Assembly (NCBI GenBank): GCA_945865925.1
Contig: CAMBFG010000002.1
Coordinates: 12,421 to 76,420, forward strand
From: Dehalococcoides mccartyi
GTDB lineage: Bacteria; Chloroflexota; Dehalococcoidia; UBA2979
Direction of reading: 5' to 3'
Length of the DNA stretch: 64,000 bases
The notes below the pieces were generated by a model that saw nothing but the letters and a program-made list of their open reading frames with translations, made no database searches and was not told where the DNA came from. Of this stretch, positions 2,549-43,011 are shown piece after piece. Positions within the stretch are counted from its first letter, which is position 1, and every line of letters begins with the position of its first letter. The position numbers and the translations under genes were made by a program.

Positions 2549-3377
2549 AGCGCGGCTCCGGCTCGGCGCCCACGTTCTGAAGTTCGTAGCGGACCGCAGC
2601 CGCCAGGTCGGCCACGGCGTGGTCGTCGGGCGTCCTCGGGCGTTCGAGCGGGATATCGATGATCTTCTTGATCCGGCCGGGGCTCGGCGACATCACCACC
2701 ACTCGGTCACCGAGGATGACGGCCTCGCGCACGTTGTGAGTGACGAAGAGGACGGTCGTGCCAATCCGTGCCCACACGGACTGCAGTTCCAGCTGCAGGT
2801 CGTCGCGTGTCTGGGCGTCGAGGGCCGCGAACGGTTCATCCATGAGCAGCACGTGCGGCTCGACGGCCAGACCCCGCGCGAGCTGGGCGCGCTGCTTCAT
2901 CCCGCCAGACAGCTCGTGGATGTACGCGCGGTCGAAGCGACTGAGGTTCACGAGGGCCAATTGCCGGTCGACGATCTCCCGACGCTGCTCCTTCGGAACG
3001 CCTCGCAGCTTCAGGCCGAACTCCACGTTGTCCCGGACATTCAGCCACGGGAAGAGCGCAGGCTCCTGGAAGACGACGGCGCGCTGCTGCGCCATCCCGC
3101 GGATCGGAGCTCCCTCGAACACGGCCTCGCCCTGGTAGTCCGTGTCGATGCCGGCCGCGATGTTGAGCAGCGTCGACTTCCCGCAGCCCGAGGGACCCAC
3201 GATGCAGATGAACTCGCGCGGCCTCACCTTGAGCGTCACGTCGTCGAGTGCGAGGGTGTCCTGGCGCGACGTGCGGAAGTGCTTGCTGATGTGGCGAAGC
3301 GCCAGCAACGGCTCGGGGTCAGAGGCCGCTGAGGCCCTTCCGCCACCCTGCCGTCCGGTGTCTGCGATCAACGCCAT
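2538..3377 (-). CDS. ABC transporter ATP-binding protein (NitT/TauT family)
   Basis: Walker A GPSGCGKST, signature LSGGMKQR, Walker B LLMDEP. The start is taken at MALIADTG; the ORF extends to 3440. Confidence 0.85.
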   Translation of the reverse strand: MALIADTGRQGGGRASAASDPEPLLALRHISKHFRTSRQDTLALDDVTLKVRPREFICIVGPSGCGKSTLLNIAAGIDTDYQGEAVFEGAPIRGMAQQRAVVFQEPALFPWLNVRDNVEFGLKLRGVPKEQRREIVDRQLALVNLSRFDRAYIHELSGGMKQRAQLARGLAVEPHVLLMDEPFAALDAQTRDDLQLELQSVWARIGTTVLFVTHNVREAVILGDRVVVMSPSPGRIKKIIDIPLERPRTPDDHAVADLAAAVRYELQNVGAEPEPRYAI

Positions 3378-5526: not shown

Positions 5527-7311
5527 ATGAGCACTACGAGCGACCGGCAGCAGGCCCCGCACGTCATCCCCATCATCGAAAAAGAGTTCACCGACTTCGA
5601 CACCGAAGCGAAGGACTTTCTTGCCGGCAATCAGGAAGAGAAGAAGTTCATCGGCTTCCGCCTGAAGCAGGGCGTCTACGGCCAGCGCCAAGCGGCCCGC
5701 CAGATGGTGCGCGTGAAACTGCCCTTCGGCGGCGTCACCCCGCAGCAACTCGAGGGCTTCGCGCAGGTCGCGGAGCGCTTCGCCCCGCTCGGCAAGGGCC
5801 ACATCACCACCCGCCAGAACGTGCAGTTCCACCACTTCCGTCTCGCCGAGGCGTACGACCTCCTGAAGGTCCTCGGCGACCACGGTCTCTCCTCGCGTGA
5901 GGCGTGCGGCAACGTCGTGCGCAACGTCACCGGCGACCCGTGGGCGGGCACCCGTGACGACGAGCCGTTCGACATCACGCCGTACGCGGGCGCCTTCGTG
6001 CGTTACTGGGTACGCAACCCCATCTCGCAGCTGCTCCCCCGCAAGTTCAAGGTCACGTTCTCCGGCTCCGAGGTGGACGCCGCGATGACCGCGATCCACG
6101 ACATCGGCTTCATCCCCCGCGTCCGCACCGAGGGCGGCAAGGAAGTCCGCGGCTTCAAGATGGTCGTCGGTGGTGGCCTCTCCACCATGGCGAAGGAAGC
6201 CCTCCTGCTCTCCGAGTTCGTCCCGGTCGAGAAGTTCCTGACCTACTCGGAAGCGGTCATCCGCATCTTCGAGGACGCCAGCGAGCTCCGGAAGGACATC
6301 CACAAGGCCCGCCTGAAGTTCCTCGTCCAGCGCGTGGGTGCCGAGGCGTTCCAGAAGATGGTCGCCGAGCGCCTCGCCCAGGACTGGGCGCAGCAGATCC
6401 CGCCGCTCGAAGCCCTCATGTACAACGACGACGAGCAGGCGCTCGCGCCCGCCCCTTCCACGCTGGAGGCGAACAGCGTGCCGGCGGGTGACCGCGCCGC
6501 CTTCCAGAAGTGGGTGGACGAGAACGTCCGCACCCAGAAGCAGGCCGGCTACTACGCCGTCGAGGCGAAGGTGCCGCAGGGCGACCTGAACCCGGCGCAG
6601 TTCCGCGGCCTCGCTAAGGTCCTCACCGACTTCGGTGGTGGGCGTGCGCGGATGACGCAGGACCAGAACATCGTCCTGCGCTGGATCCCCGGCGCGAACC
6701 TCTACGGTGTCTGGCAGGCACTCCAACCGCTCGGCCTCGGTGGCTCCGGCGTCCAGACCATCGAGGACGTCGTGTCCTGCCCGGGCACGGACTCCTGCAA
6801 GCTGGGCATCACCTCCTCGATGGGCCTCAACCGCGCCATCACGGAGCAGCTGCAGACGATGAACGTCACCGACTCGCTGTCGCGCAAGGTGCTGATCAAC
6901 ATCTCCGGCTGCCCGAACTCCTGCGGCCAGCACCACCTGGGCAACATCGGCTTCCACGGTGCAGCCATGAAGAACGACGACCGGCAAGTGCCGGCCTACA
7001 ACGTCTTCCTCGGCGGCATGCGTCGCGAGGGCGAGACGCTCCGCATCGGCTCCGTCGCGCGCCTCCGCATCCCAGCGAAGCGTGTCCCGGTCGCCGTCGA
7101 GCGGTTCATCGGCGTGTACGAGTCCGGCCGTGAGGCGGGCGAGGAGTTCAACGCGTACGTCGACCGTGTCGGCGTGAAGCCGTTCGAGGCTGCCGTCCAG
7201 GACCTCTCGATCACGCCGAAGTTCGCCACCGACAACTTCCAGGAGTTCATCGACTGGGAGCGCGAAGGTTTGTACGTCCTTGAGCGCGGCGAGGGTGAGT
7301 GCGCCGTTTAG
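5527..7311 (+). CDS. sir: ferredoxin-dependent sulfite reductase (siroheme/[4Fe-4S] hemoprotein)
   Basis: NirA/SirA fold with Cys motifs CPGTDSCKLG and SGCPNSCGQHH. It lies immediately upstream of cysH-cysD-cysN. Confidence 0.85.
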   Translation: MSTTSDRQQAPHVIPIIEKEFTDFDTEAKDFLAGNQEEKKFIGFRLKQGVYGQRQAARQMVRVKLPFGGVTPQQLEGFAQVAERFAPLGKGHITTRQNVQFHHFRLAEAYDLLKVLGDHGLSSREACGNVVRNVTGDPWAGTRDDEPFDITPYAGAFVRYWVRNPISQLLPRKFKVTFSGSEVDAAMTAIHDIGFIPRVRTEGGKEVRGFKMVVGGGLSTMAKEALLLSEFVPVEKFLTYSEAVIRIFEDASELRKDIHKARLKFLVQRVGAEAFQKMVAERLAQDWAQQIPPLEALMYNDDEQALAPAPSTLEANSVPAGDRAAFQKWVDENVRTQKQAGYYAVEAKVPQGDLNPAQFRGLAKVLTDFGGGRARMTQDQNIVLRWIPGANLYGVWQALQPLGLGGSGVQTIEDVVSCPGTDSCKLGITSSMGLNRAITEQLQTMNVTDSLSRKVLINISGCPNSCGQHHLGNIGFHGAAMKNDDRQVPAYNVFLGGMRREGETLRIGSVARLRIPAKRVPVAVERFIGVYESGREAGEEFNAYVDRVGVKPFEAAVQDLSITPKFATDNFQEFIDWEREGLYVLERGEGECAV

Positions 7312-7396
7312 CGTCGCGCGCCTGACCGCAGGGTGCGGGGCGGGCGACGGCCCGCCCGCTCCATTCACCGGGGAGAGCCCCGGAAGGGAACCACCG

Positions 7397-8113
7397 ATGA
7401 CCACCACACCAGCCACCGACGAACTCGCCGCCATCGAGGCCGCCGAGGCCCGACTGCACAACGCGAAGCCCGAGGACATCCTCGAGTGGGTGTTCAAGCG
7501 TTACGGGACGGGCGTCACGCTCGCCTCCGCATTCGGCAACACGGCGGACGCGGTGCTGATGGACATGGTGGCAAAGGTCGCCCCCGGCACCCCGGTGTTC
7601 TACCTGGACACGGACTTCCTGTTCCCGGAGACCCACGACTTCATCTCGAAGTCGCGCGAGAAGTACGGCGACAAGATCAACCTCCAGATGTTCAAGACGG
7701 ACCTGACACCCGAGGCGCAGGCGATCAAGTTCGGGGAGCGGCTCTGGGAAGAGCACCCGGACCAATGCTGCGACATCCGCAAGGTCGAGCCGATCCACCA
7801 GGCGCTGGACGGCAAGCGCGCCTGGATCACCGGCATCCGACGTGACCAGTCAGAGACGCGTGCGAACGCGCCGGCAGTGACGTGGGACGGCAAATTCGGC
7901 CTCGCGAAGGCGAACCCGCTCGTGACCTGGGACGAGAAGACCTCCTGGGCTTACATCTTCGCGAACGACGTGCCGTACAACATCCTGCACGACCGCAACT
8001 ACCCGACGGTGGGCTGCACCAACTGCACCCGTGCCGTGATGCCGGGCGAGGATCAGCGGGCTGGCCGCTGGGCTGGCTCGGACAAGGTCGAGTGCGGCCT
8101 GCACCTCGACTAG
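7397..8113 (+). CDS. cysH: adenylyl-sulfate (APS) reductase, thioredoxin-dependent, Fe-S type
   Basis: PAPS-reductase fold, plus the CCDIRKVEP and ECGLH cysteine motifs characteristic of [4Fe-4S] APS reductases. Confidence 0.85.
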   Translation: MTTTPATDELAAIEAAEARLHNAKPEDILEWVFKRYGTGVTLASAFGNTADAVLMDMVAKVAPGTPVFYLDTDFLFPETHDFISKSREKYGDKINLQMFKTDLTPEAQAIKFGERLWEEHPDQCCDIRKVEPIHQALDGKRAWITGIRRDQSETRANAPAVTWDGKFGLAKANPLVTWDEKTSWAYIFANDVPYNILHDRNYPTVGCTNCTRAVMPGEDQRAGRWAGSDKVECGLHLD

Positions 8114-8132
8114 ACGACCCGGAGCACGACGG

Positions 8133-9047
8133 ATGAGCAGCACGGCCACGCGGCTGACGCACCTTCAGGCCCTTGAGGCCGAGTCGATCTTCATCATCCG
8201 CGAGGTCGCGGCGGAGTTTGAGCGCCCGGGAATGTTGTTCTCCGGGGGCAAGGACTCCATCGTCATGCTTCGCCTCGCGGAGAAGGCCTTCGCGCCCGCG
8301 CGCGTCCCCTTCCCCGTCGTCCACATCGACACCGGCCACAACTTCGAGGAGGTCATGGAGTACCGCGACCGCCGCGTCGCCGACCTCGGCGTCCGCCTGA
8401 TCGTCGGCTCCGTGCAGGAGAAGATCGACCGCGGCGAACTCGTGGAGGAGACCGGGCCGAGGGCCTCGCGCAACCGTCTCCAGACGCCCGTGCTGCTCGA
8501 GACGCTTGCGAAGCATGAGTTCGACGCCGTCTTCGGTGGCGGACGACGTGACGAGGAGAAGGCGCGCGCCAAGGAGCGCGTGTACTCCTTCCGGGACGAC
8601 TTCGGCCAATGGGACCCAAAGAACCAGCGCCCTGAACTGTGGAACCTCTACAACGGCCGCCACCGCAAGGGCGAGCACATCCGCATCTTCCCGCTCTCCA
8701 ACTGGACCGAGATGGACATCTGGCAGTACATCGCCGAAGACCGCATCGAGGTGCCCTCGATCTACTACGCGCACCAGCGCGAGGTGTTCGCCCGCGACGG
8801 CATGCTGATGGCGACGAGCCCGCTGATCCAGATGCTGCCCGGTGAGTCGCCATTCATGGAGACCGTGCGCTACCGCACCGTGGGTGACCTCACCTGTACC
8901 GCGGCCGTCCAGAGCACCGCCGCCACCGTCGACGACGTGATCGCGGAGACGGCGGCCACCCGCATCACCGAGCGCGGGGCGACGAGGGCGGACGACCGCT
9001 TCTCGGAAGCCGCGATGGAAGACCGCAAGCGCGAGGGCTACTTCTAG
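8133..9047 (+). CDS. cysD: sulfate adenylyltransferase subunit 2
   Basis: PP-loop SGGKDS; typical CysD length and order. Confidence 0.9.
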   Translation: MSSTATRLTHLQALEAESIFIIREVAAEFERPGMLFSGGKDSIVMLRLAEKAFAPARVPFPVVHIDTGHNFEEVMEYRDRRVADLGVRLIVGSVQEKIDRGELVEETGPRASRNRLQTPVLLETLAKHEFDAVFGGGRRDEEKARAKERVYSFRDDFGQWDPKNQRPELWNLYNGRHRKGEHIRIFPLSNWTEMDIWQYIAEDRIEVPSIYYAHQREVFARDGMLMATSPLIQMLPGESPFMETVRYRTVGDLTCTAAVQSTAATVDDVIAETAATRITERGATRADDRFSEAAMEDRKREGYF

Positions 9048-21220: not shown

Positions 21221-22062
21221 TGACCCTCACCACTCATCCTGAAACCCCCATCGATCCGTTCGCCGATCGCCGCTGGCGCGAGACGAGCCGTGCTCCTCAC
21301 ATCGAGGTAGCCGGGGTCGAAGTCTCGTTCGGCGCCTACACGGCGATCACGGGCATCGACCTCGCGATCGCGCGGGGGGAATTCGTCAGCCTGATCGGCC
21401 ACTCCGGCTGTGGCAAATCGACCTTGCTCAATCTGATGGCAGGCCTCGGGCGACCGACGCAGGGCACGGTCCAGGTCGAAGGCCAGATTGTCGAGGGCCC
21501 GGCCGCGGATCGCTGCATGGTCTTCCAGCATCACGGCCTCCTGCCGTGGCTCTCTGTGTACGACAACATCTACGTGGCCGTGGATGCTGCGAGGCGATCC
21601 CACACCACCGACGAGAAGGCCGCGCGCGTGGAGCGTGTGCTCCAGGCCGTGCGGATGTGGGACCACCGAACGAAGAAGCCTGGCATGCTCTCTGGCGGCC
21701 AGCGTCAACGTGTCTCGGTTGCGCGTGCGTTCGCTGTGGCGCCTTCAGTCCTCCTTCTGGACGAGCCCTTCGGTGCGGTCGACGCGCTCACCAAGCGGGC
21801 GCTCCACCGCGAACTCGTCGAACTGTCAAGCATTGTCGGCACGACGGAGACCGTCGTGATGGTCACGCACGACATCGACGAAGCGATCTTCTTGTCTGAT
21901 CGCATCGTCGTAATGACCGACGGGCCTTCTGCTGGCATCCGCGAGATTGTGGACGTGCCGATTGCGCGCCCCCGCACGCTATCCGATGTGATGCACAGCC
22001 CGGTCTACATCGAACTCCGAGACCACCTGCTCAGCCTGCTCGGTGACGACGAACCGCGATAG
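21220..22062 (+). CDS. nrtC: nitrate ABC transporter ATP-binding protein
   Basis: GHSGCGKST, LSGGQRQR, LLLDEP. Confidence 0.85.
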   Translation: MTLTTHPETPIDPFADRRWRETSRAPHIEVAGVEVSFGAYTAITGIDLAIARGEFVSLIGHSGCGKSTLLNLMAGLGRPTQGTVQVEGQIVEGPAADRCMVFQHHGLLPWLSVYDNIYVAVDAARRSHTTDEKAARVERVLQAVRMWDHRTKKPGMLSGGQRQRVSVARAFAVAPSVLLLDEPFGAVDALTKRALHRELVELSSIVGTTETVVMVTHDIDEAIFLSDRIVVMTDGPSAGIREIVDVPIARPRTLSDVMHSPVYIELRDHLLSLLGDDEPR

Positions 22063-34827: not shown

Positions 34828-34949
34828 CGTGTGTCCTCCCTATGCGGTATCAATCCGCGGACACGTTCAAGCCTACAAGTTGTGAGGCGCCCATGTGTGA
34901 AGCCGCGGTGCGTAGTTATGTCGCGGCGCTGGCCGTCGAGCGGTACTGA

Positions 34950-36459
34950 CTACGAGTCCCAGTTGAGCGTGCGCTCCACTGCCCGTCCCCATCGCGCCGC
35001 CTCGCGATCGCGATCCGCGGCCGCGATCCGCGGCCGCGATCCGCGGCTCAAACACCGTGACCCCACCAGCATCGAGGCTGGCGAACTCCTCGAGGCTCCC
35101 CCACACGCCGGCGGCGATCCCGGCGAGGCCGGCCGCACCAAAGGCGGTGACTTCAAGCTCGGCCGGGCGATGGACGGGGATGCCGAGGAGGTCCGCCTGG
35201 ATCTGCATCAGCAGGTCGTCGCGGCAGGCGCCGCCATCGACGCGTAACGCGGACAGCGGCGCACCCGCATCGGCAGCGAGGCACTCGATGACTTCGCGGC
35301 TCTGGTGCGCGATCGCGTCGAGCGCCGCGCGTGCGATGTGGGCGCGCGAGGTGCCACGCGTCATGCCGAACAGCGCGCCGCGCGCCGATTCGTCCCAGTG
35401 CGGCGCCCCGAGACCCGTGAATGCTGGCACCAGCACCACGCCACCACTGTCCGGCACCGAAGCGGCCAGCGCCTCGACCTCCGCCGCCGTCGTGATGATG
35501 CCGAGGCCGTCACGCAGCCACTGCACGGTGGAGCCGCCGGAGAACACGCTGCCTTCAAGGGCGTAGGCAGGCGGCGCACCCTGCACGCGGGCAGCCACGG
35601 TGGTGAGCAGGCCTCGGTGGCTAGGGACGGCGCGGTCACCCGTGTGCATCAGCAGGAAGCAGCCGGTGCCATAGGTGTTCTTCGCCGCACCAGGCGTGGT
35701 GCAGCGCTGTCCGAAGAGTGCCGCCTGCTGGTCTCCCGCCACCCCGCGGATCGGGATCGCAGCACCCAGCCACGAGGCGTCCGCCTCGCCGAAGTCGCCT
35801 GATGACAGGCGGACGTCCGGCAACAGCGCGCGCGGAACATCGAGGGCCGCGAGCAAGGTGTCGTCCCACGCGTGCGTGTGGATGTTCCACAGCATCGTGC
35901 GGCTGGCGTTCGTCTCGTCCGTCGCGTGGACGCGTCCGCCGGTCAGCCGCCAGAGCAGCCACGAGTCCACCGTGCCAAACGCGAGTTCGCCCGCAGCGGC
36001 CCGCGCCTGGGCCTCTGGGACGGCATCCAGAATGAAGCGCACCTTCGTCGCACTGAAGTAAGCGTCGATCACGAGGCCGGTGCGCGCCCGCACCTCCTCG
36101 GTCAGGTCGCGCGCGCGCAGGTCATCGCAGATCGAGGCGGTCTGGCGAGACTGCCACACGATGGCGGGGTAAATCGGTCGCCCGGTGGCGCGCTCCCAGA
36201 CGAGCGCCGTCTCTCGCTGGTTCGTGATGCCGATGGCGGCGACCTCGGATGCCTGGATGGCCGCCCTCGCGAGGACACCGCGAGCGGCGGCCAACTGACT
36301 CTCCCAGATCGCCTCGGGGTCGTGCTCCACCCAGCCGGGGCGCGGGTAGGACTGCGGGAACTCCCGCTGGTCGACGGCGACGGCGCGCCCCTGCTCGTCG
36401 AACAGGATCGCGCGCGACGATGTGGTGCCCTGATCCAGCGCGAGGACGTACCGGCTCAT
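34950..36459 (-). CDS. glpK: glycerol kinase; C-terminal 26 codons displaced into another frame by a 13-bp tandem repeat (the annotated ORF reads through to 34873 with an aberrant tail)
   Basis: [10 protein letters not shown]-motif and GlpK similarity throughout. The authentic C-terminus ...[16 protein letters not shown] is encoded in the -1 frame, ending at 34950. Confidence 0.8.
35011..35049. repeat. 13-bp tandem repeat (cgatccgcggccg) x3: two perfect copies and one partial
   Basis: 35011-35023, 35024-35036 and 35037-35047. The unit length is not a multiple of 3, so a change in copy number shifts the glpK reading frame. Confidence 0.85.
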
Positions 36460-37544: not shown

Positions 37545-38461
37545 ACCCCGGCCTCTGCACGGAACGCGGCGACCGTGCGCGCCATGCCGTCCGCCAGGCT
37601 CACGGTCGCCTGCCACTGCCACAGGTCGCGCGCCTTCGAGGCGTCGAGGGCGATCCGCGGGATGTCGCCGGCACGCGGGGGTGCCGCGATCGGCAGACGC
37701 TCGTAACCCGTCTCGCGCGCAAGGTGGTCGAAGATCTCGCGTGTGCTCGTCTCACGTCCCGTGCCGACGAGGCAGAACGCGGCGACGGGTGCGGTCGCGG
37801 CGAGGATCTGTGCCTCGACCACGTCATCCACGTACACATAGTCCCGTGTGTCACCGCCCGTGCCGAAGATGGTGCAGGGCTCATCCTTCAGCATCCGCTG
37901 CGTGAAGATCGCGACCACACCGGCCTCGCCGTGCGGATCCTGGTACGGGCCATAGATGTTGCCGGGCCGTAGCCCCGCGATCTCCATCCCTGTCTCCAGG
38001 CCGACGATCTCCAGATAGCGCTCTGCGGCCACCTTCGAGGCCCCGTAGATCGAGCGAGGCGCCACGGGCGTCTCGTCGCGCGCCGGAATCTCCGGCGGGT
38101 CGCCGAACATCGCACCGCCGGACGAGGTGAAGACGAAGCGGCGCGCACCCGCCTCGGCGGCCGCGCGCGCGAGGGTGATGCTGGCGATGCAGTTGGTCTC
38201 GATGTCGAGACGCGGTTCACGCATGGAAACGGAGACGGACGCCTGCGCGGCGAGGTGCCACACCACCTCGGGGCGCGCCTCGGCGACCGCGCGCTGGACA
38301 GCGGCGTCGTCGCGGATGTCGACGCGGACGTCTCGCCAGCCCTCGACGCCACGCGTGGGCGCCTTCCAGTCGAAGCCCGTGACTTCGTGCCCCTCCGCAA
38401 CGAGCCGTCGCACGAGATGGGTGCCAACGAAGCCGGACGTGCCAGTCACCAGAACGCGCAT
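37541..38461 (-). CDS. NAD-dependent epimerase/dehydratase (SDR family)
   Basis: MRVLVTGTSGFVGTHL Rossmann motif and YGASK catalytic motif. The longer ORF to 38761 is probably spurious. Confidence 0.75.
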   Translation of the reverse strand: MRVLVTGTSGFVGTHLVRRLVAEGHEVTGFDWKAPTRGVEGWRDVRVDIRDDAAVQRAVAEARPEVVWHLAAQASVSVSMREPRLDIETNCIASITLARAAAEAGARRFVFTSSGGAMFGDPPEIPARDETPVAPRSIYGASKVAAERYLEIVGLETGMEIAGLRPGNIYGPYQDPHGEAGVVAIFTQRMLKDEPCTIFGTGGDTRDYVYVDDVVEAQILAATAPVAAFCLVGTGRETSTREIFDHLARETGYERLPIAAPPRAGDIPRIALDASKARDLWQWQATVSLADGMARTVAAFRAEAGV

Positions 38462-38615
38462 AGAGCCCTCCCGAACGACCTCGATGCTCTCCGCGGGTCG
38501 CGCAGAGGGCACGATACGGGCGCCTGCCGTCACGGTCAGCCAGCGAACCTCCGGGCGGAGGCGAGTACATCCGGCGGGGCGCACCACCACGCCTCCGAGG
38601 GCTACGATGCCGCCG

Positions 38616-40211
38616 ATGAAGGGCGCACGCACTGACTTGCTGAGCACCGCACCCGTAGCCGCCGCCGGCGCCGCCCTGGTGCTGCTCGCGGCGGCTGCGT
38701 GGCCCCTCGCCGCCCTGACGCGCACCGCGTTCGAGGGTGACCTGTTCACCCTGATCCGCACTGACCAGGAACTCCAGCAGGCGTTCCTGTGGGCAAGCGC
38801 GATGGCGACCGCTTCGTGCGCCCTCGGCGTCTTCTTCGGGGTGGTGAGCGCGTACTGCTGGGCACGTCTGCGCTATCCCGGCCGGACGTTCCTTCGCGGG
38901 CTCGCGATCGCGCCGCTGGCGGTGCCCGCGATCGTCCTCGCGAGCGGCATCGAGGCGTTGTTTGCGCCGGGGCGGCTCGCCGCCGACCTCGCCACATTCG
39001 TCGGGATCGATCCGGCGCGGCTGCGCAACGGGACAGGTGCCGTGATCGTCGCGCACGGGCTCATCGCGACCGCAGCCGTTGGATGGTTCGCCAGCGTCGC
39101 GTGGGCCAACGTGGACGCGCGGAAGGTGGACGCCGCTCGCACGCTGGGGCCGGCCCCCTCCGCGCCGCTCGGATTGCGGTGTGGCCGGCCGTCTGGCCCT
39201 CGGCCCTCGCCGGAGCGGGCTCTGCGTTCCTGCAGGCGATCCTGTCCTACGGCGTGATCGTGATCCTAGCTGACGGCCGCGAGACGACCGAGGGCCTCGC
39301 TGTCAGGCTCGCGCTCGCGAGCGACGAACGAGCGGCGGCGGTGGCGCTGCTCACCAGTGGGTACGCGCTGCTCTGCGGGATCGTCACCATCCAGTTGGTA
39401 CGCTCACCGCAGGTCGAGGCGCGCCGCACGCGCGCGCGTCAACGCGCCCGCGGCGTCGATCGGGTCGCCATCCTGATCGCGGCGGTACCGGCGCTGATGG
39501 TCCTTGGCGCGACGCTCACCTTGCTGCTCCAGGCAGTCGAAGCCGAGGATGGCCTGACCGCGCATTACGTTGCGCGGACTCGTGGCGGGGCCAGGTGCAA
39601 GCGGCATCCGGCAGGCGGCCCTGGGAAGTCTGCTGGCCGCCGTCCCGGCAGCGGCGCTGACAGCCGTATGGGGCGGGATGGCGGGCGCGGCGCTGGGGCG
39701 GATGCGTGGCTTCGGCGGAATGGTGCGAGCGGTCGCGCTGCTGTTCCCCCTGGCCGCGTCACCGGCGGCGCTCGCCTTCGGCTGGCGGCTGGCAGCTCCG
39801 GACATCGACCCCCGGATCACGCTGCCGGTGGTGCAGGCGTTCGTGGCGTTCCCGTTCGTCGCCGGCACGATTGCGCGGATGCGGCCTCGGCCGCACGCGG
39901 GGATCGTGGTGGCTGCGCGGTCGCTGGGTGCTCGACGCCTGCGCGCCTGGCGCGTGCTGCGAGGGCCGTCGTACGTGATCGCAGGACTGGTGGGATTCCT
40001 CGTCGCGTTTGGGATCACGCTCGGAGAGACCGGTGCCGCAACGGTGGCCCGCGTGCCTGGCGGCACTCTTCCGGTCCGGTTGCTCGAACTCCACCGCCAG
40101 GGCTCCAGCGCCCAGGCTGCTGCACTTGCCAGCGCTATCCTCGTGATCGCTGTGGCGGCATTCACGCTCGGCGACCCGATCATCGCGCGGCTCGGCCGGG
40201 GGCGGAGGTAG
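38616..40211 (+). pseudogene. two-domain (12-TM, ThiP/FbpB-like) ABC importer permease interrupted by two single-base homopolymer indels
   Basis: Frame 0 (38616 onward) carries the EAA loop ...VDARKVDAARTLG and then shifts to frame 2 at a G4 run near 39146-39149 (-1). Frame 2 continues with RIAVWPAVWPSALAGAGSAFLQAILSYGVIVIL and shifts back to frame 0 at the G-run near 39587-39590 (+1). Frame 0 then encodes the second TMD (IRQAALGSLLAAV...ARSLGARRLRAWRVL). Confidence 0.6.
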
Positions 40212-40213
40212 CC

Positions 40214-41728
40214 GTGGGCACTCTGGAGGTCCGCTCCCTCTCGCGTATCCGTGATGGCGTCCTCTTGTTCGACGAAGTCTCCTTCTTCGTGCCTGACGGA
40301 CGGGTCACCGCGATCGCCGGCCCAGCGATGTCCGGGAAGACCTCGCTGCTGCGCGTGATCGCGGGCGTCGAGCGCTCGGACGGCGGAGACGTGCTGCTGG
40401 ACGGGCACTCACTGCTGCGGCTGCCGACCGAGCGCCGCCACCTCGGCTTCCTGTTCGAGGACCTCGCGCTGTTCGAGGACATGACCGTGCGAGACAACGT
40501 GGCGTTCGGGTTGCGCATGCAGCGACGCAAGCGCGTCGAGCGGCTGCGCCGCACGGACGACGTGCTGGACGCGCTGGGCCTCGGTGGGAAGGCGCATCGC
40601 AAACCTCGCGACCTGTCGCCGGGCGAGCGGAAGCGCCTCGCGTTCGCGCGCGCCGTCGCCCCGGAACCCTCGCTGTTGCTGCTTGACGAGCCCACGGCTG
40701 GCGTTGAGGAAGTGGGCCGCGAAGCGTGGCGACAGGAACTCGCACAGGCACTCCGCGCCCTCCATGTGACGACGGTGATCGCGACGACTGACCTACGTGA
40801 CGCCGTCGTGCTGGCGGACCAGATCGTCCTAATGGCGGAAGGTCAGGTGCTCCAGACGGGCAGCGTGTCTCGCGTGCTGCAAGGGCCCGCCTCCATCGAG
40901 GCGGCGACGCTCGCGGGCTACGTACCACTCGTGCGCGGCGACGTCTTCGAGGGCCATGTGATCGAGCAGGGTGTCGGCGCAGTAGCCTTCCCCGCCGGCT
41001 TCCCGCTGCGCCAACAGGCGGCAGTCATGGCGCACCCCACGGCACTTTTCGGGGTACCCGGTGGCTCAGGCCTCGGCAGCGGCGTGTCGGGCACGCTCTT
41101 GCGGGCGCGGCCGGACGGACCTGCTTACGTGGTGGAGGTGCAACTGAACGACCGCTCAGTGGCATTGCGGTGGGAATGGGACCTGACACCACCGGAACCC
41201 GGCGCGTCGGTCGAGATCGCGGTGCGGCCCGGCACGTTGCGCTTCTTCAACGACTCCCCCGCCCCTCGCGTCCGCTCCACCGAGTCGGCCACCGTCGCTC
41301 CGGAGCGCTTTGCCGTGCTGGCGCCTCGAGTGGTGGCGGGCGCCGATGCACCCGGCCCGCGCGCCTCGCAACCGCCGCCGCCTGACGAACCGCTCGACGC
41401 AGCGCCCGCACCACCGACGCCGGCATCCACCAGCGCGACGGACGAGGACGATGAGGACTCGTCGCCGCCACACCTGGATGCTCGCGCACCAGGGCCGGCC
41501 TGGCAGCGTCCCCCAGTGGAGGATGTCGGACCGGTCCGATCGCCTGACGCGGCCGTTGACCCGGTCCGGGTACGTCCCAACCGCCCGACGCCCCCGCCCG
41601 CCGAGCCGGTCGAGCCCGTCGAGCCAATGCAGCCAGTCGAGGAGCAGTTGACTTCCGACGAGCCGGCGCCCGCCGGTGCGCCCCCACCAAAGGCGGACGA
41701 GCGGCACAGCGGGATGCCGCTCGACTAG
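40214..41728 (+). CDS. PotA/FbpC-type ABC ATPase homologue with substituted catalytic motifs, a TOBE-like domain and about 170 aa of acidic Pro-rich tail
   Basis: Walker A GPAMSGKT and Walker B LLLLDEP are kept. Q-loop FQ is FE, signature LSGGQ is LSPGE, D-loop SALD is AGVE, and H-loop THD is TTD. The C-terminal tail is low complexity (EPVEPVEPMQPVEE...). Confidence 0.75.
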   Translation: MGTLEVRSLSRIRDGVLLFDEVSFFVPDGRVTAIAGPAMSGKTSLLRVIAGVERSDGGDVLLDGHSLLRLPTERRHLGFLFEDLALFEDMTVRDNVAFGLRMQRRKRVERLRRTDDVLDALGLGGKAHRKPRDLSPGERKRLAFARAVAPEPSLLLLDEPTAGVEEVGREAWRQELAQALRALHVTTVIATTDLRDAVVLADQIVLMAEGQVLQTGSVSRVLQGPASIEAATLAGYVPLVRGDVFEGHVIEQGVGAVAFPAGFPLRQQAAVMAHPTALFGVPGGSGLGSGVSGTLLRARPDGPAYVVEVQLNDRSVALRWEWDLTPPEPGASVEIAVRPGTLRFFNDSPAPRVRSTESATVAPERFAVLAPRVVAGADAPGPRASQPPPPDEPLDAAPAPPTPASTSATDEDDEDSSPPHLDARAPGPAWQRPPVEDVGPVRSPDAAVDPVRVRPNRPTPPPAEPVEPVEPMQPVEEQLTSDEPAPAGAPPPKADERHSGMPLD

Positions 41729-41744
41729 CCGCGGGGAGACCTCG

Positions 41745-42128
41745 ATGGCACGGGCGACCAGCAAGCAGGCGGAACAGCGACGCGCGCGGCTCGTTGCGAT
41801 CTGCGAGGCGCTCCCCGAGGTCGAAACCACCGGCGACCAGCACCTCGCCTTCCGCGTGCGCGGCAAACTCGTCGCCTACTACCTCGATGACCACCACGAG
41901 GACGGAATGATCGTCGTCTCCGTGAAGACGACGCCGGCGCTGCAGGCGATGCTGGTCGAGGACGACCCCGTGCGCTTCTCGCTCACGCCATACATGGCAC
42001 ATCGCGGGTGGGTATCGCTGCGCATCGACGGGCGCTCCGTGGCCTGGGACGAGGTCGCCGCGCTGGTGCGGGCGTCGTACCGGCTCGTCGCACCCAGGCG
42101 ACTGGCTGCGCAGATGCCCGAGGCGTAG
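41745..42128 (+). CDS. MmcQ/YjbR-family protein
   Basis: Fold-level resemblance only (LPEVETTGDQHLAFRVRGKLVAYY...). Confidence 0.5.
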   Translation: MARATSKQAEQRRARLVAICEALPEVETTGDQHLAFRVRGKLVAYYLDDHHEDGMIVVSVKTTPALQAMLVEDDPVRFSLTPYMAHRGWVSLRIDGRSVAWDEVAALVRASYRLVAPRRLAAQMPEA

Positions 42129-42172
42129 TCACGAATTCGACGCCTCCCATAGGCCGCGCGTACGCTCGGCGT

Positions 42173-42718
42173 ATGCCAGAGAAACAGCCTCAGGCAACCC
42201 CCGTGGACGCGCGGATCGAGCACGACCCGGAGCGGCGAGCGCTCGCGGCCCTCGCCGAGCGTCTGCCGCTGCTTCCCGATCGGCACACACCCGACCAGTC
42301 GCTGCAGATTGTCGTGGACCTCGCGCGCGACCTCACCAGCGCGCGGTATGGGGCGCTTGCCGTCACGGACCGCGCTGACCGCGTGGAGGGGTTCATGGTG
42401 GCGGGACTCGAATCGTCCGAACTGATGCGGCTGCGGACACCGCCGCAGAGCCATGGGCCCCTCGGCTCACTGCGCGACGACGGCCGTCCCGTCCGCTTCG
42501 AGGACGTACAGCAGCACGCGAAGGCTTTCGGGTTCCCGAGCCACCACCCGGAGATGAGCGCGCTCGTGGGCGTTGCCATCTGGGTGAACGGCGAGGTCCG
42601 TGGCGCGCTGTACGTGACGGACCGGCAGGACGGCCAGCCATTCGACCGCGACGACGAGCGGCTGCTGACAACGCTCGCCTCGCACGCTGCGACGATCATC
42701 GAGACGGAGTGGTACTAG
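42173..42718 (+). CDS. GAF domain-containing protein
   Basis: GAF-like region ...YGALAVTDRADRVEGFMVAGL...VAIWVNGEVRGALYVTD. No output domain. Confidence 0.6.
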   Translation: MPEKQPQATPVDARIEHDPERRALAALAERLPLLPDRHTPDQSLQIVVDLARDLTSARYGALAVTDRADRVEGFMVAGLESSELMRLRTPPQSHGPLGSLRDDGRPVRFEDVQQHAKAFGFPSHHPEMSALVGVAIWVNGEVRGALYVTDRQDGQPFDRDDERLLTTLASHAATIIETEWY

Positions 42719-43011
42719 CGCACGACGATCGGGACGGCCTGGACCACATCGAGTACCTCGTCGAGCGCCTGCCGCAGGCCCGGACTGACACCCTCGTTCA
42801 GACAGCGAGCGCAGTTGGGCTGGTCGGGCGCGCCGGTGTCGTGCAGCGTCACCACCACGCCACCCTCGGCGAGCGCGATACCGCAGATCGTGTCCACGCT
42901 GCTCGCCCAGAAGGCGCGGTCGCCTCGAGGCTCGGCGTCGTGCAGGACGACCCAGTGCCAGTCGTCGCCGAAGTCCTCGAGGGCCTTCGCGACGATGCGC
43001 TTCTCTGCCAT
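42715..43011 (-). CDS. hypothetical small Cys/His-containing protein (98 aa)
   Basis: Strong GC3 bias. WHWVVLHD...NCARC motif. No family recognised. Confidence 0.5.
   Translation of the reverse strand: MAEKRIVAKALEDFGDDWHWVVLHDAEPRGDRAFWASSVDTICGIALAEGGVVVTLHDTGAPDQPNCARCLNEGVSPGLRQALDEVLDVVQAVPIVVR

Follow-up and report, generated by a model that had tools for sequence, protein, structure and literature searches.

The gene described here lies in a 64,000-nt stretch of contig CAMBFG010000002.1 from a Dehalococcoidia assembly (the window), and encodes a nucleotide-binding domain (NBD) protein of the ATP-binding cassette (ABC) family. It runs on the + strand from a GTG start at 40214 to a TAG stop at 41726-41728, yields a product of 504 aa, and directly follows a fused permease gene. 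The GC content of the window is ~70%, and mechanical lists of its open reading frames (ORFs) are consequently rich in long spurious frames. The GTG is preceded by a GGAGG Shine-Dalgarno sequence that overlaps the permease stop codon by 1 nt; the spacer between the two consists of the TA of that stop codon and CC at 40212-40213. This overlap points to translational coupling of permease and NBD. From permease stop to NBD start the two genes lie 2 nt apart, and this spacing is kept in several related loci (L001, L004, L006 and L013-L015; loci of the family carry L numbers throughout). A promoter and terminator scan of 38300-42900 found nothing, which is uninformative for a Chloroflexota genome of 70% GC. 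The protein matches Pfam PF00005 (ABC_tran) with 99.3 bits against a cut-off of 25, and HMMER aligns it with CysA and PotA, in keeping with the PotA/FbpC-type importer NBDs to which a sequence-only reading of this DNA had likened it. The nearest solved relatives are CysA (1z47), PotA (8y5f/8zx1) and FbpC (3fvq). Among NCBIfam models, those of the PhnT2, CysA, PotA, WtpC and FbpC types all score far below their equivalog cut-offs: none of the ThiQ, FbpC, PhnT, PotA and CysA equivalogs is reached, and the best, PhnT2, gives 194.8 against 457.7 bits.

Residue-by-residue HMMER alignments to CysA and PotA, together with family alignments, place the catalytic motifs without ambiguity (Table 1). Walker A keeps Lys42 and Thr43 while its fourth Gly is Met (M/L/R/H among clade relatives); GPAMSGKT therefore fits the general P-loop pattern GxxxxGK[ST] and departs from GxxGxGK[ST] at that position. 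Walker B, LLLLDE with its catalytic Glu, is intact and invariant among the close relatives of the gene (the window clade). Elsewhere the motifs are substituted: the Q-loop Gln is Glu82 (E/D/G across the window clade), the first Gly of the signature is Pro, giving LSPGE for LSGGQ, the D-loop SALD is TAGVE and has lost its Asp, and the H-loop His is Thr192 (T/S/A/D across the clade). Canonical members of the family normally carry LSGGE rather than LSGGQ. The alignments uphold all four substitutions listed in the sequence-only reading, as well as the retention of the Walker A Lys and the Walker B Asp-Glu; that list had overlooked one further loss, the A-loop aromatic. Ile12-Arg13 stands where every canonical relative with a substrate-binding protein (SBP) gene has Y/F, and the Phe of PotA lies opposite Arg13. 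Measured against the definition of an active ABC ATPase, the protein thus departs at five of seven motifs.

Table 1. Features of the permease-NBD locus, with positions counted from the first letter of the window.
Feature	Position	Strand	Basis and remarks
ThiP-like fused permease, two BPD_transp_1 halves, 534 codons once repaired	38607..40211	+	tblastn
1-nt deletion in the permease gene (T missing), GGGTGCC to GGGGCC	39148..39149	+	blastn against L001, L006, L008
1-nt insertion in the permease gene (extra T), TACGTGCG to TACGTTGCG	39570..39571	+	blastn against L001, L006, L008
GGAGG Shine-Dalgarno sequence	40205..40209	+	4 nt 5' of GTG; read directly from the sequence
Degenerate ABC nucleotide-binding core, residues 1-222	40214..40879	+	Pfam, HMMER and family alignments
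A-loop position, Ile12-Arg13, aromatic absent	40247-40252	+	alignment
Walker A GPAMSGKT, residues 36-43	40319-40342	+	alignment
Q-loop Glu82	within 40448-40462	+	alignment
Signature LSPGERKR, residues 134-141	40613-40636	+	alignment
Walker B LLLLDE, residues 154-159	40673-40690	+	alignment
D-loop TAGVE, residues 161-165	40694-40708	+	alignment
H-loop Thr192	within 40781-40792	+	alignment
C-terminal regulatory domain, residues 223-346, MalK/CysA/GlcV-type beta fold	40880..41251	+	AlphaFold, Foldseek
Disordered acidic Pro-rich linker, residues 347-496	41252..41701	+	pLDDT 40-57, composition
C-terminal peptide RHSGMPLD, residues 497-504, then stop codon	41702..41728	+	conserved in the family
Stand-alone GAF-domain gene	42215..42718	+	tblastn, 59% identity to the L012 GAF protein

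A search of 5.8 billion proteins returned ~45 clusters that cover the whole query, from 100% down to 43% identity, every one of them from Chloroflexi or Dehalococcoidia metagenome-assembled genomes (MAGs); below these the score falls from 270 to 193 bits, to ordinary CysA proteins. When GTDB species-representative genomes were scanned with two peptide patterns from the C-terminal domain (C-domain), 33 loci were found, all in Chloroflexota MAGs. The ORFs are open in more than 25 species-level genomes, down to ~43% identity, and the close orthologues (79-98% amino acid identity) bear the same degenerate motifs. Each locus was tabulated for its NBD motifs and neighbouring genes. An SBP gene, whose product is of the sfuA/thiamine type (TIGR01254, 238 bits), lies upstream of the fused permease in 10 loci (L011, L012, L025, L027-L030, L032, L040 and L041), and all 10 have a canonical NBD with GPSGxGK[ST], MFQELALFPH, LSGGERQR, LLLDEPLGAxDE, VSHDLRDA and an A-loop Y/F. 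These positional orthologues are 45-50% identical to the window NBD. The SBP-less loci, ~27 including the window and its close relatives, are all degenerate, and the substitutions differ between clades, with the H-loop His changed to T/R/N/Q/D, the Walker A Lys to I/V/S/N and the Walker B DE to EA/ES/DA. While the window clade combines Q to E/D/G and H to T/S/A/D with LSPGE, L010 and L016-L018 show Walker A K to I/V, LLVEAP or LLVESP at Walker B and H to N; L020 and L024 have LLLEAP and H to D; L019, L022 and L026 have H to R with LNPDQQQR or LTPDQQQR; and L039, L042 and L045 have H to Q with LSEEARGR or LSPEARGR. L021 carries K to S and LLLLDAP, and in L023 Walker A is unrecognisable.

Both kinds of locus, the window included, share the gene order AAA33-[SBP]-permease-NBD-GAF-(hyp98)-DLH-DUF192-hyp253, with a YjbR gene (41745-42128) inserted between the NBD and GAF genes in the window clade. 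In L031, L036, L038 and L033 only 96-597 nt separate the end of the AAA33 gene from the permease, so that an SBP gene would not fit, and in L039 the interval is occupied by unrelated genes. Given the shared synteny, this indicates that the SBP gene was lost in situ. No homologue of the ancestral SBP was found by tblastn in the locus or in the entire 64-kb window. In a rough neighbour-joining tree the SBP-less loci fall mostly into one large group, with L021 apart, and the later, clade-specific motif erosions look independent.

One 2.05-Mb contig of a MAG of long-read quality (CBDFJZ010000008.1) holds loci of both kinds: the canonical L030, with an SBP gene and outside the usual synteny, and the degenerate L045, without an SBP gene and in the ancestral synteny, its permease split across two frames.

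A comparison of dN/dS (omega) with orthologues had been proposed in the sequence-only reading as a check on purifying selection, and its outcome supports such selection. With Nei-Gojobori (NG86) estimates, a crude measure for which dS is near saturation in several pairs, omega between the window and its orthologues is 0.03-0.15 for the NBD core, 0.03-0.10 for the C-domain, 0.14-0.51 for the tail and 0.15-0.24 for the permease. Clades that lack the Walker A Lys and the Walker B Asp-Glu give 0.16-0.25 (NBD), 0.08-0.18 (C-domain) and 0.34-0.42 (permease), and canonical SBP-containing pairs 0.11-0.36, 0.19-0.55 and 0.11-0.58, respectively. If anything, the C-domain appears to be under tighter constraint after the loss of catalysis. 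We also compared alignment columns: 129 are invariant in SBP-containing loci, and among SBP-less loci the mean entropy is 1.46 bits for the 14 catalytic ones and 0.72 bits for the remaining 115 (one-sided Mann-Whitney test, p = 0.001), the H-loop His being the most variable of all 129. Columns kept invariant include ALF, N95 and G99-L100 after the Q-loop, a large part of the signature helix and numerous positions in the C-domain. By these measures relaxation is aimed at the catalytic positions while strong purifying selection acts on the protein overall. The gene combines the marks expected of a pseudoenzyme: its product is homologous to active enzymes, has lost catalytic residues and is kept by purifying selection.

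An AlphaFold2 monomer model built from the family alignment has pLDDT >90 over residues 1-346 and 40-57 over residues 347-504. With Foldseek, residues 1-346 superpose full-length on GlcV, PH0203, CysA, FbpC, PotA and MalK at target-normalised TM-scores of 0.83-0.88; the alignments comprise 347-371 columns across both domains, with E ~1e-33 to GlcV, CysA and FbpC. Because the superposition spans the entire structured length, we assign the C-terminal domain to the MalK/CysA-type regulatory domains. Pfam TOBE models do not match the 504-aa protein, so that the "TOBE-like" domain claimed earlier from the sequence stands at the level of fold and not of a Pfam match. The C-domain contains motifs specific to the family, namely a GGSGLGSGVSG loop (41060-41092), RWEWDL (41168-41185) and IAVRPGTLRFF, and by itself matches just 43 representative clusters among 1.84 billion. 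GGSGLGSGVSG and RWEWDL are near-invariant family-wide and absent from ordinary CysA/MalK regulatory domains; the region they mark could be a candidate ligand-binding site.

The tail (residues 347-504) comprises 158 aa, slightly shorter than the ~170 aa first given, and is otherwise as described, acidic (net charge -15), Pro-rich (24.7%) and predicted to be disordered. Its linker portion is unalignable and variable in length among orthologues, whose total length ranges from ~400 to 600 aa. Against two ~98%-identical assemblies (L006 and L008) the tail differs by a single 9-nt in-frame indel, one Glu-Pro-Val (EPV) unit (GAGCCCGTC) at ~41622. The tail had been regarded as atypical low-complexity sequence, but it is more than that: at its end is a conserved peptide, the C-terminus reading ...KADERHSGMPLD-COOH. 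The pattern H-x(1-2)-x-[ML]-P-x(1-2)-[DHSNE] occurs at the C-terminus in ~23 of 25 complete SBP-less sequences, in forms such as RHSGMPLD, PHRGMPLD, HHRGMPLD, RHRQMPLS, RHPQMPLH and RH[HR]ELPSVE, and in 3 of 9 SBP-containing loci. The latter three canonical members end in PRH[TA]GMPAID or ARHGAMPPID, and the peptide must therefore be older than the loss of the SBP. A six-frame translation of the window gave no other product ending in an H..MP.. peptide.

The permease gene upstream is broken in the window. It lies in three frame segments (38607-39148, 39149-39570 and 39571-40211), over which the tblastn matches to the intact permeases of L001 and L004 are distributed in frames 3, 2 and 3. After the 1-nt deletion the original frame meets a TAG at 39255-39257; the 1-nt insertion, 422 nt further on, returns the gene to its original frame and restores the total length. 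Both indels are absent from L001, L004, L006 and L008, in which the permease is intact at 531-534 aa. L006 and L008 are independent assemblies from other samples with ~98% nucleotide identity to the window, and over the 534 codons the repaired permease has no stops and differs from them by 7 synonymous and 0 non-synonymous changes. Along ~21 kb, 21 neighbouring genes were compared with L001: the permease alone is frame-split, the only other discrepancy being the 3' end of glpK. The absence of non-synonymous changes after repair and the intact, near-identical copies imply that the break is either very recent or an assembly or consensus error; by this comparison it would be one or the other and not a trait of the system. 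The loss and gain of one T would fit a polishing or consensus artefact as well as a very recent lesion. The frameshift reported in the sequence-only reading is thus real in this DNA, as two 1-nt indels, without being evidence for long-term decay. A frameshift characteristic of the lineage is ruled out by its absence from L001, L004, L006 and L008 and by a repaired protein unchanged relative to L006 and L008. Programmed frameshifting was likewise set aside, as near-identical sequences lack the indels and a stop follows the first of them. The EAA coupling core [ED]AAR.LGA is kept in both permease halves. NCBIfam permease models match the window permease weakly (at most 83.8 bits, compared with 189.5 bits for a canonical orthologue). 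In most SBP-less loci an intact permease ORF of ~520-600 aa, with the EAA core present in its two halves, stops at a distance of -4 to +9 nt from the start of the NBD gene.

Further frame breaks were noted. The glpK/FGGY gene (34873-36459, -) has a net 13-nt insertion relative to L001 at 35004-35040, made up of tandem GATCCGCGGCCGC-like copies near its 3' end; the 498-aa orthologue can be aligned over its residues 4-478 only, and in the window the ORF runs out into a stretch rich in Arg and Gly, with a frameshifted C-terminus. The NBD protein P0034 is accompanied by an intact 543-aa permease in L043, while in L009 the permease homology is split over two frames (residues 49-305 in frame 2, 6473-7231; residues 337-567 in frame 1, 7300-7989). 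The C-terminal permease half is the sole ORF called there (252 or 201 aa), an assembly- or strain-specific break.

Altogether, we think it likely that the gene encodes a conserved pseudo-ATPase, the NBD subunit of what was formerly a binding-protein-dependent ABC importer of the ThiBPQ/Sfu(Fbp) type. The pseudo-ATPase with a probable non-transport role suggested in the sequence-only reading is in keeping with this, since drift is specific to the catalytic positions and purifying selection is strong overall. In an uncultured Chloroflexota lineage the locus lost its SBP gene in situ, after which constraint was lifted from the residues on which ATP hydrolysis and NBD-dimer catalysis depend. The NBD fold, the permease-facing surface, the C-domain, the fused permease and the tight coupling of permease and NBD genes stayed under purifying selection. 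Since permease ORFs are intact, the EAA core is kept and the residues after the Q-loop are invariant, assembly of the NBD with the permease is probably maintained, and the product would be expected to assemble in the membrane as (fused permease)1(NBD)2. Within the window clade the Walker A Lys/Thr and the Walker B Asp-Glu are strictly kept, so nucleotide is probably still bound, while hydrolysis of ATP is probably very poor or absent. In sister clades even the nucleotide-binding residues are gone, which suggests that the function shared by the family would not be ATP-driven import.

The most likely role, offered as a hypothesis, would be that of a membrane-anchored regulator or scaffold, in which the C-domain would sense a ligand or partner, while RHxGMPLD, the C-terminal peptide on its tether, would recruit a cytosolic partner. 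More broadly, the whole importer module may have been exapted into a hydrolysis-independent membrane scaffold or sensor, with the loss of the SBP making catalysis dispensable and with the C-domain and RHxGMPLD as its functional elements; we advance this wider proposal tentatively and regard it as somewhat doubtful. On such an exaptation, catalysis would be fully dispensable in some clades and nucleotide binding would be retained in the window clade.

The chief alternative in functional terms is that the protein still energises a working importer, with unusual motifs, slow hydrolysis and an SBP encoded elsewhere or none at all. The invariant Walker A Lys/Thr and Walker B Asp-Glu of the window clade would be explained in this way, as would the strong purifying selection on NBD and permease and the intact, tightly coupled permease of the relatives with its EAA core; moreover, LSGGE in place of LSGGQ is already the normal signature among canonical members. 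It is harder to reconcile with the loss of the A-loop aromatic, the Q-loop Gln, the first signature Gly and the H-loop His together. The lost positions also vary inside the clade (Q-loop E/D/G, H-loop T/S/A/D, Walker A fourth residue M/L/R/H), which argues that they are no longer in use. Sister clades alike in architecture, synteny and selection do without the Walker A Lys and Walker B Asp-Glu, so that a function common to them cannot depend on hydrolysis, and the SBP gene was deleted in situ with no ancestral-SBP homologue in the 64-kb window. We therefore consider a working importer unlikely. An arrangement in which the protein acts as a regulatory paralogue, heterodimerising or competing with a canonical NBD for the permease in a dominant-negative or modulatory manner, is more improbable still. 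It would draw on the coexistence of the canonical L030 and the degenerate L045 on one contig of one MAG, and on a C-domain that is more constrained in degenerate than in canonical clades; yet this is the only genome in which both forms were seen together, and in most SBP-less loci the degenerate NBD keeps an adjacent, co-evolving permease gene of its own.

Simple decay, in which a dying transporter operon leaves ORFs that are merely open in a 70% GC genome, had been raised in the sequence-only reading, which saw the frameshifted permease as a sign of it. The two frameshifts, the lost SBP gene, the eroded catalytic motifs and the tendency of high GC to yield long spurious ORFs are what such decay might look like, but omega is far below 1 for NBD and permease in every clade tested, the ORFs are open in more than 25 species-level genomes with a conserved C-domain and C-terminal peptide, and the frame-broken permease itself has zero non-synonymous differences from intact copies. 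An operon in decay is also contradicted by four orthologous loci (L001, L004, L006 and L008) in which the NBD and the 531-534-aa permease are intact. Canonical orthologues combined with relaxed selection in this copy had been named as the pattern that would favour decay; the orthologues exist, though only at 45-50% identity and together with an SBP gene, and selection here is not relaxed. A pseudogene is thus ruled out by dN/dS and by ORF integrity across genomes, and we regard decay as having almost no chance of being correct. A narrower matter is whether the permease was inactivated in this strain, leaving the NBD-like protein an orphan in the window genome. Here the evidence is more evenly divided. 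Two indels fall in one gene while the other 19 neighbours are frame-intact against L001 (the glpK 3' end aside), and the frame-changing 13-nt repeat expansion in glpK means that such lesions do occur in this assembly. On the other hand, the permease shows 0 non-synonymous against 7 synonymous differences from intact copies, the gene is intact in two independent ~98%-identical assemblies from other samples, and a paired loss and gain of T that restores length could be a consensus or polishing error. We place real inactivation a little below an even chance.

Several points count against the conserved pseudo-ATPase that we favour. Loss of hydrolysis is deduced from motifs only, and the retained Walker A Lys/Thr and Walker B Asp-Glu would leave residual or slow ATPase activity, or ATP-gated behaviour, possible. 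A binding-protein gene could lie outside the visible 64 kb, and the permease may really be broken in the window genome. What ties the missing SBP to the eroded motifs may be perhaps one or two ancestral events and not ~27 independent ones, and the omega values carry the coarseness of their estimator. As for the supposed scaffold or tether, the AlphaFold monomer model docks the C-terminal peptide nowhere.

ABC transporters are textbook ATP-driven pumps, and the known degenerate cases retain one working ATP site. A full-text literature search, of incomplete coverage, returned no importer NBD with both ATP sites degenerate and no bacterial ABC pseudo-ATPase, only work on single degenerate sites; this is weak evidence for the novelty of a fully degenerate importer. 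We know of no earlier description of a conserved importer in which both ATP sites are degenerate. If the pseudo-ATPase reading is right, the family would show, as a natural experiment, what an ABC scaffold can do without hydrolysis, with NBD and permease both under selection across many species. It would offer biochemistry a graded series from canonical through binding-only to fully dead proteins, and RHxGMPLD on its disordered tether would be a candidate bacterial short linear motif. In metabolic reconstructions of uncultured Chloroflexota, such genes should be annotated neither as functional "ABC transporter ATP-binding proteins" nor as importers of thiamine or iron.

With CysA/PotA/FbpC/MalK-type NBDs (1z47, 8y5f, 3fvq, 9j4r, 1q12) the protein has in common the two-domain fold (TM-scores 0.83-0.88), the top sequence matches and a position directly after a type I importer permease with EAA motifs. 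It differs from them in lacking the A-loop aromatic, Q-loop Gln, LSGGQ, D-loop Asp and H-loop His, in the absence of an SBP gene from its locus, in the extra 158-aa disordered tail with a conserved end peptide, and in a C-domain sequence too divergent for a Pfam TOBE match. The closest known systems in organisation are ThiBPQ and SfuABC (FbpABC), which the canonical Chloroflexota orthologues resemble in their TIGR01254 SBP, 567-aa ThiP/PhnU-like fused permease and canonical NBD, in the same synteny; the window clade, by contrast, has no SBP gene, a degenerate NBD and a permease that scores at most 83.8 where the canonical one reaches 189.5 bits. Degenerate sites as such are well documented. 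In CFTR, TAP1/2, TM287/288, SUR1 and Pdr5 one site carries H-loop, signature, Q-loop and catalytic substitutions, and it binds nucleotide with little or no hydrolysis (PMC7756269). These proteins are asymmetric heterodimers or fused, and one consensus site is kept (PMC7756269). The module in the window is of importer and not of exporter type, and has one NBD gene per locus together with a fused permease. As a single NBD gene serves the fused permease, both composite sites of the homodimer would be degenerate.

The build of the protein, from folded core to end peptide, has a parallel in the SSB C-terminal tip and the FtsZ linker and peptide, where a folded core is followed by a variable Pro-rich linker and a short conserved end peptide that recruits partners. 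The likeness is purely architectural, and the end peptide in the window has no sequence similarity to theirs.

A tblastn search of the window for a canonical paralogue gave two further NBD genes, at 2688-3305 (-) and 21343-21924 (+), with ~31-40% identity to this family; they presumably belong to unrelated transport systems. The GAF-domain gene downstream encodes a protein of ~170 aa that is 59-98% identical across loci and follows the NBD gene in most loci reached by sequence, canonical and degenerate alike, with L030 and L033 as exceptions. An NCBIfam search with the GAF protein gave no match, and the gene may belong to the same operon or function as the NBD. Finally, the canonical locus L011, in which the permease is frame-broken, is flanked by two DDE_Tnp_1_4 transposase genes of equal size (443-1768 and 7450-8775), an arrangement that may be composite-transposon-like.

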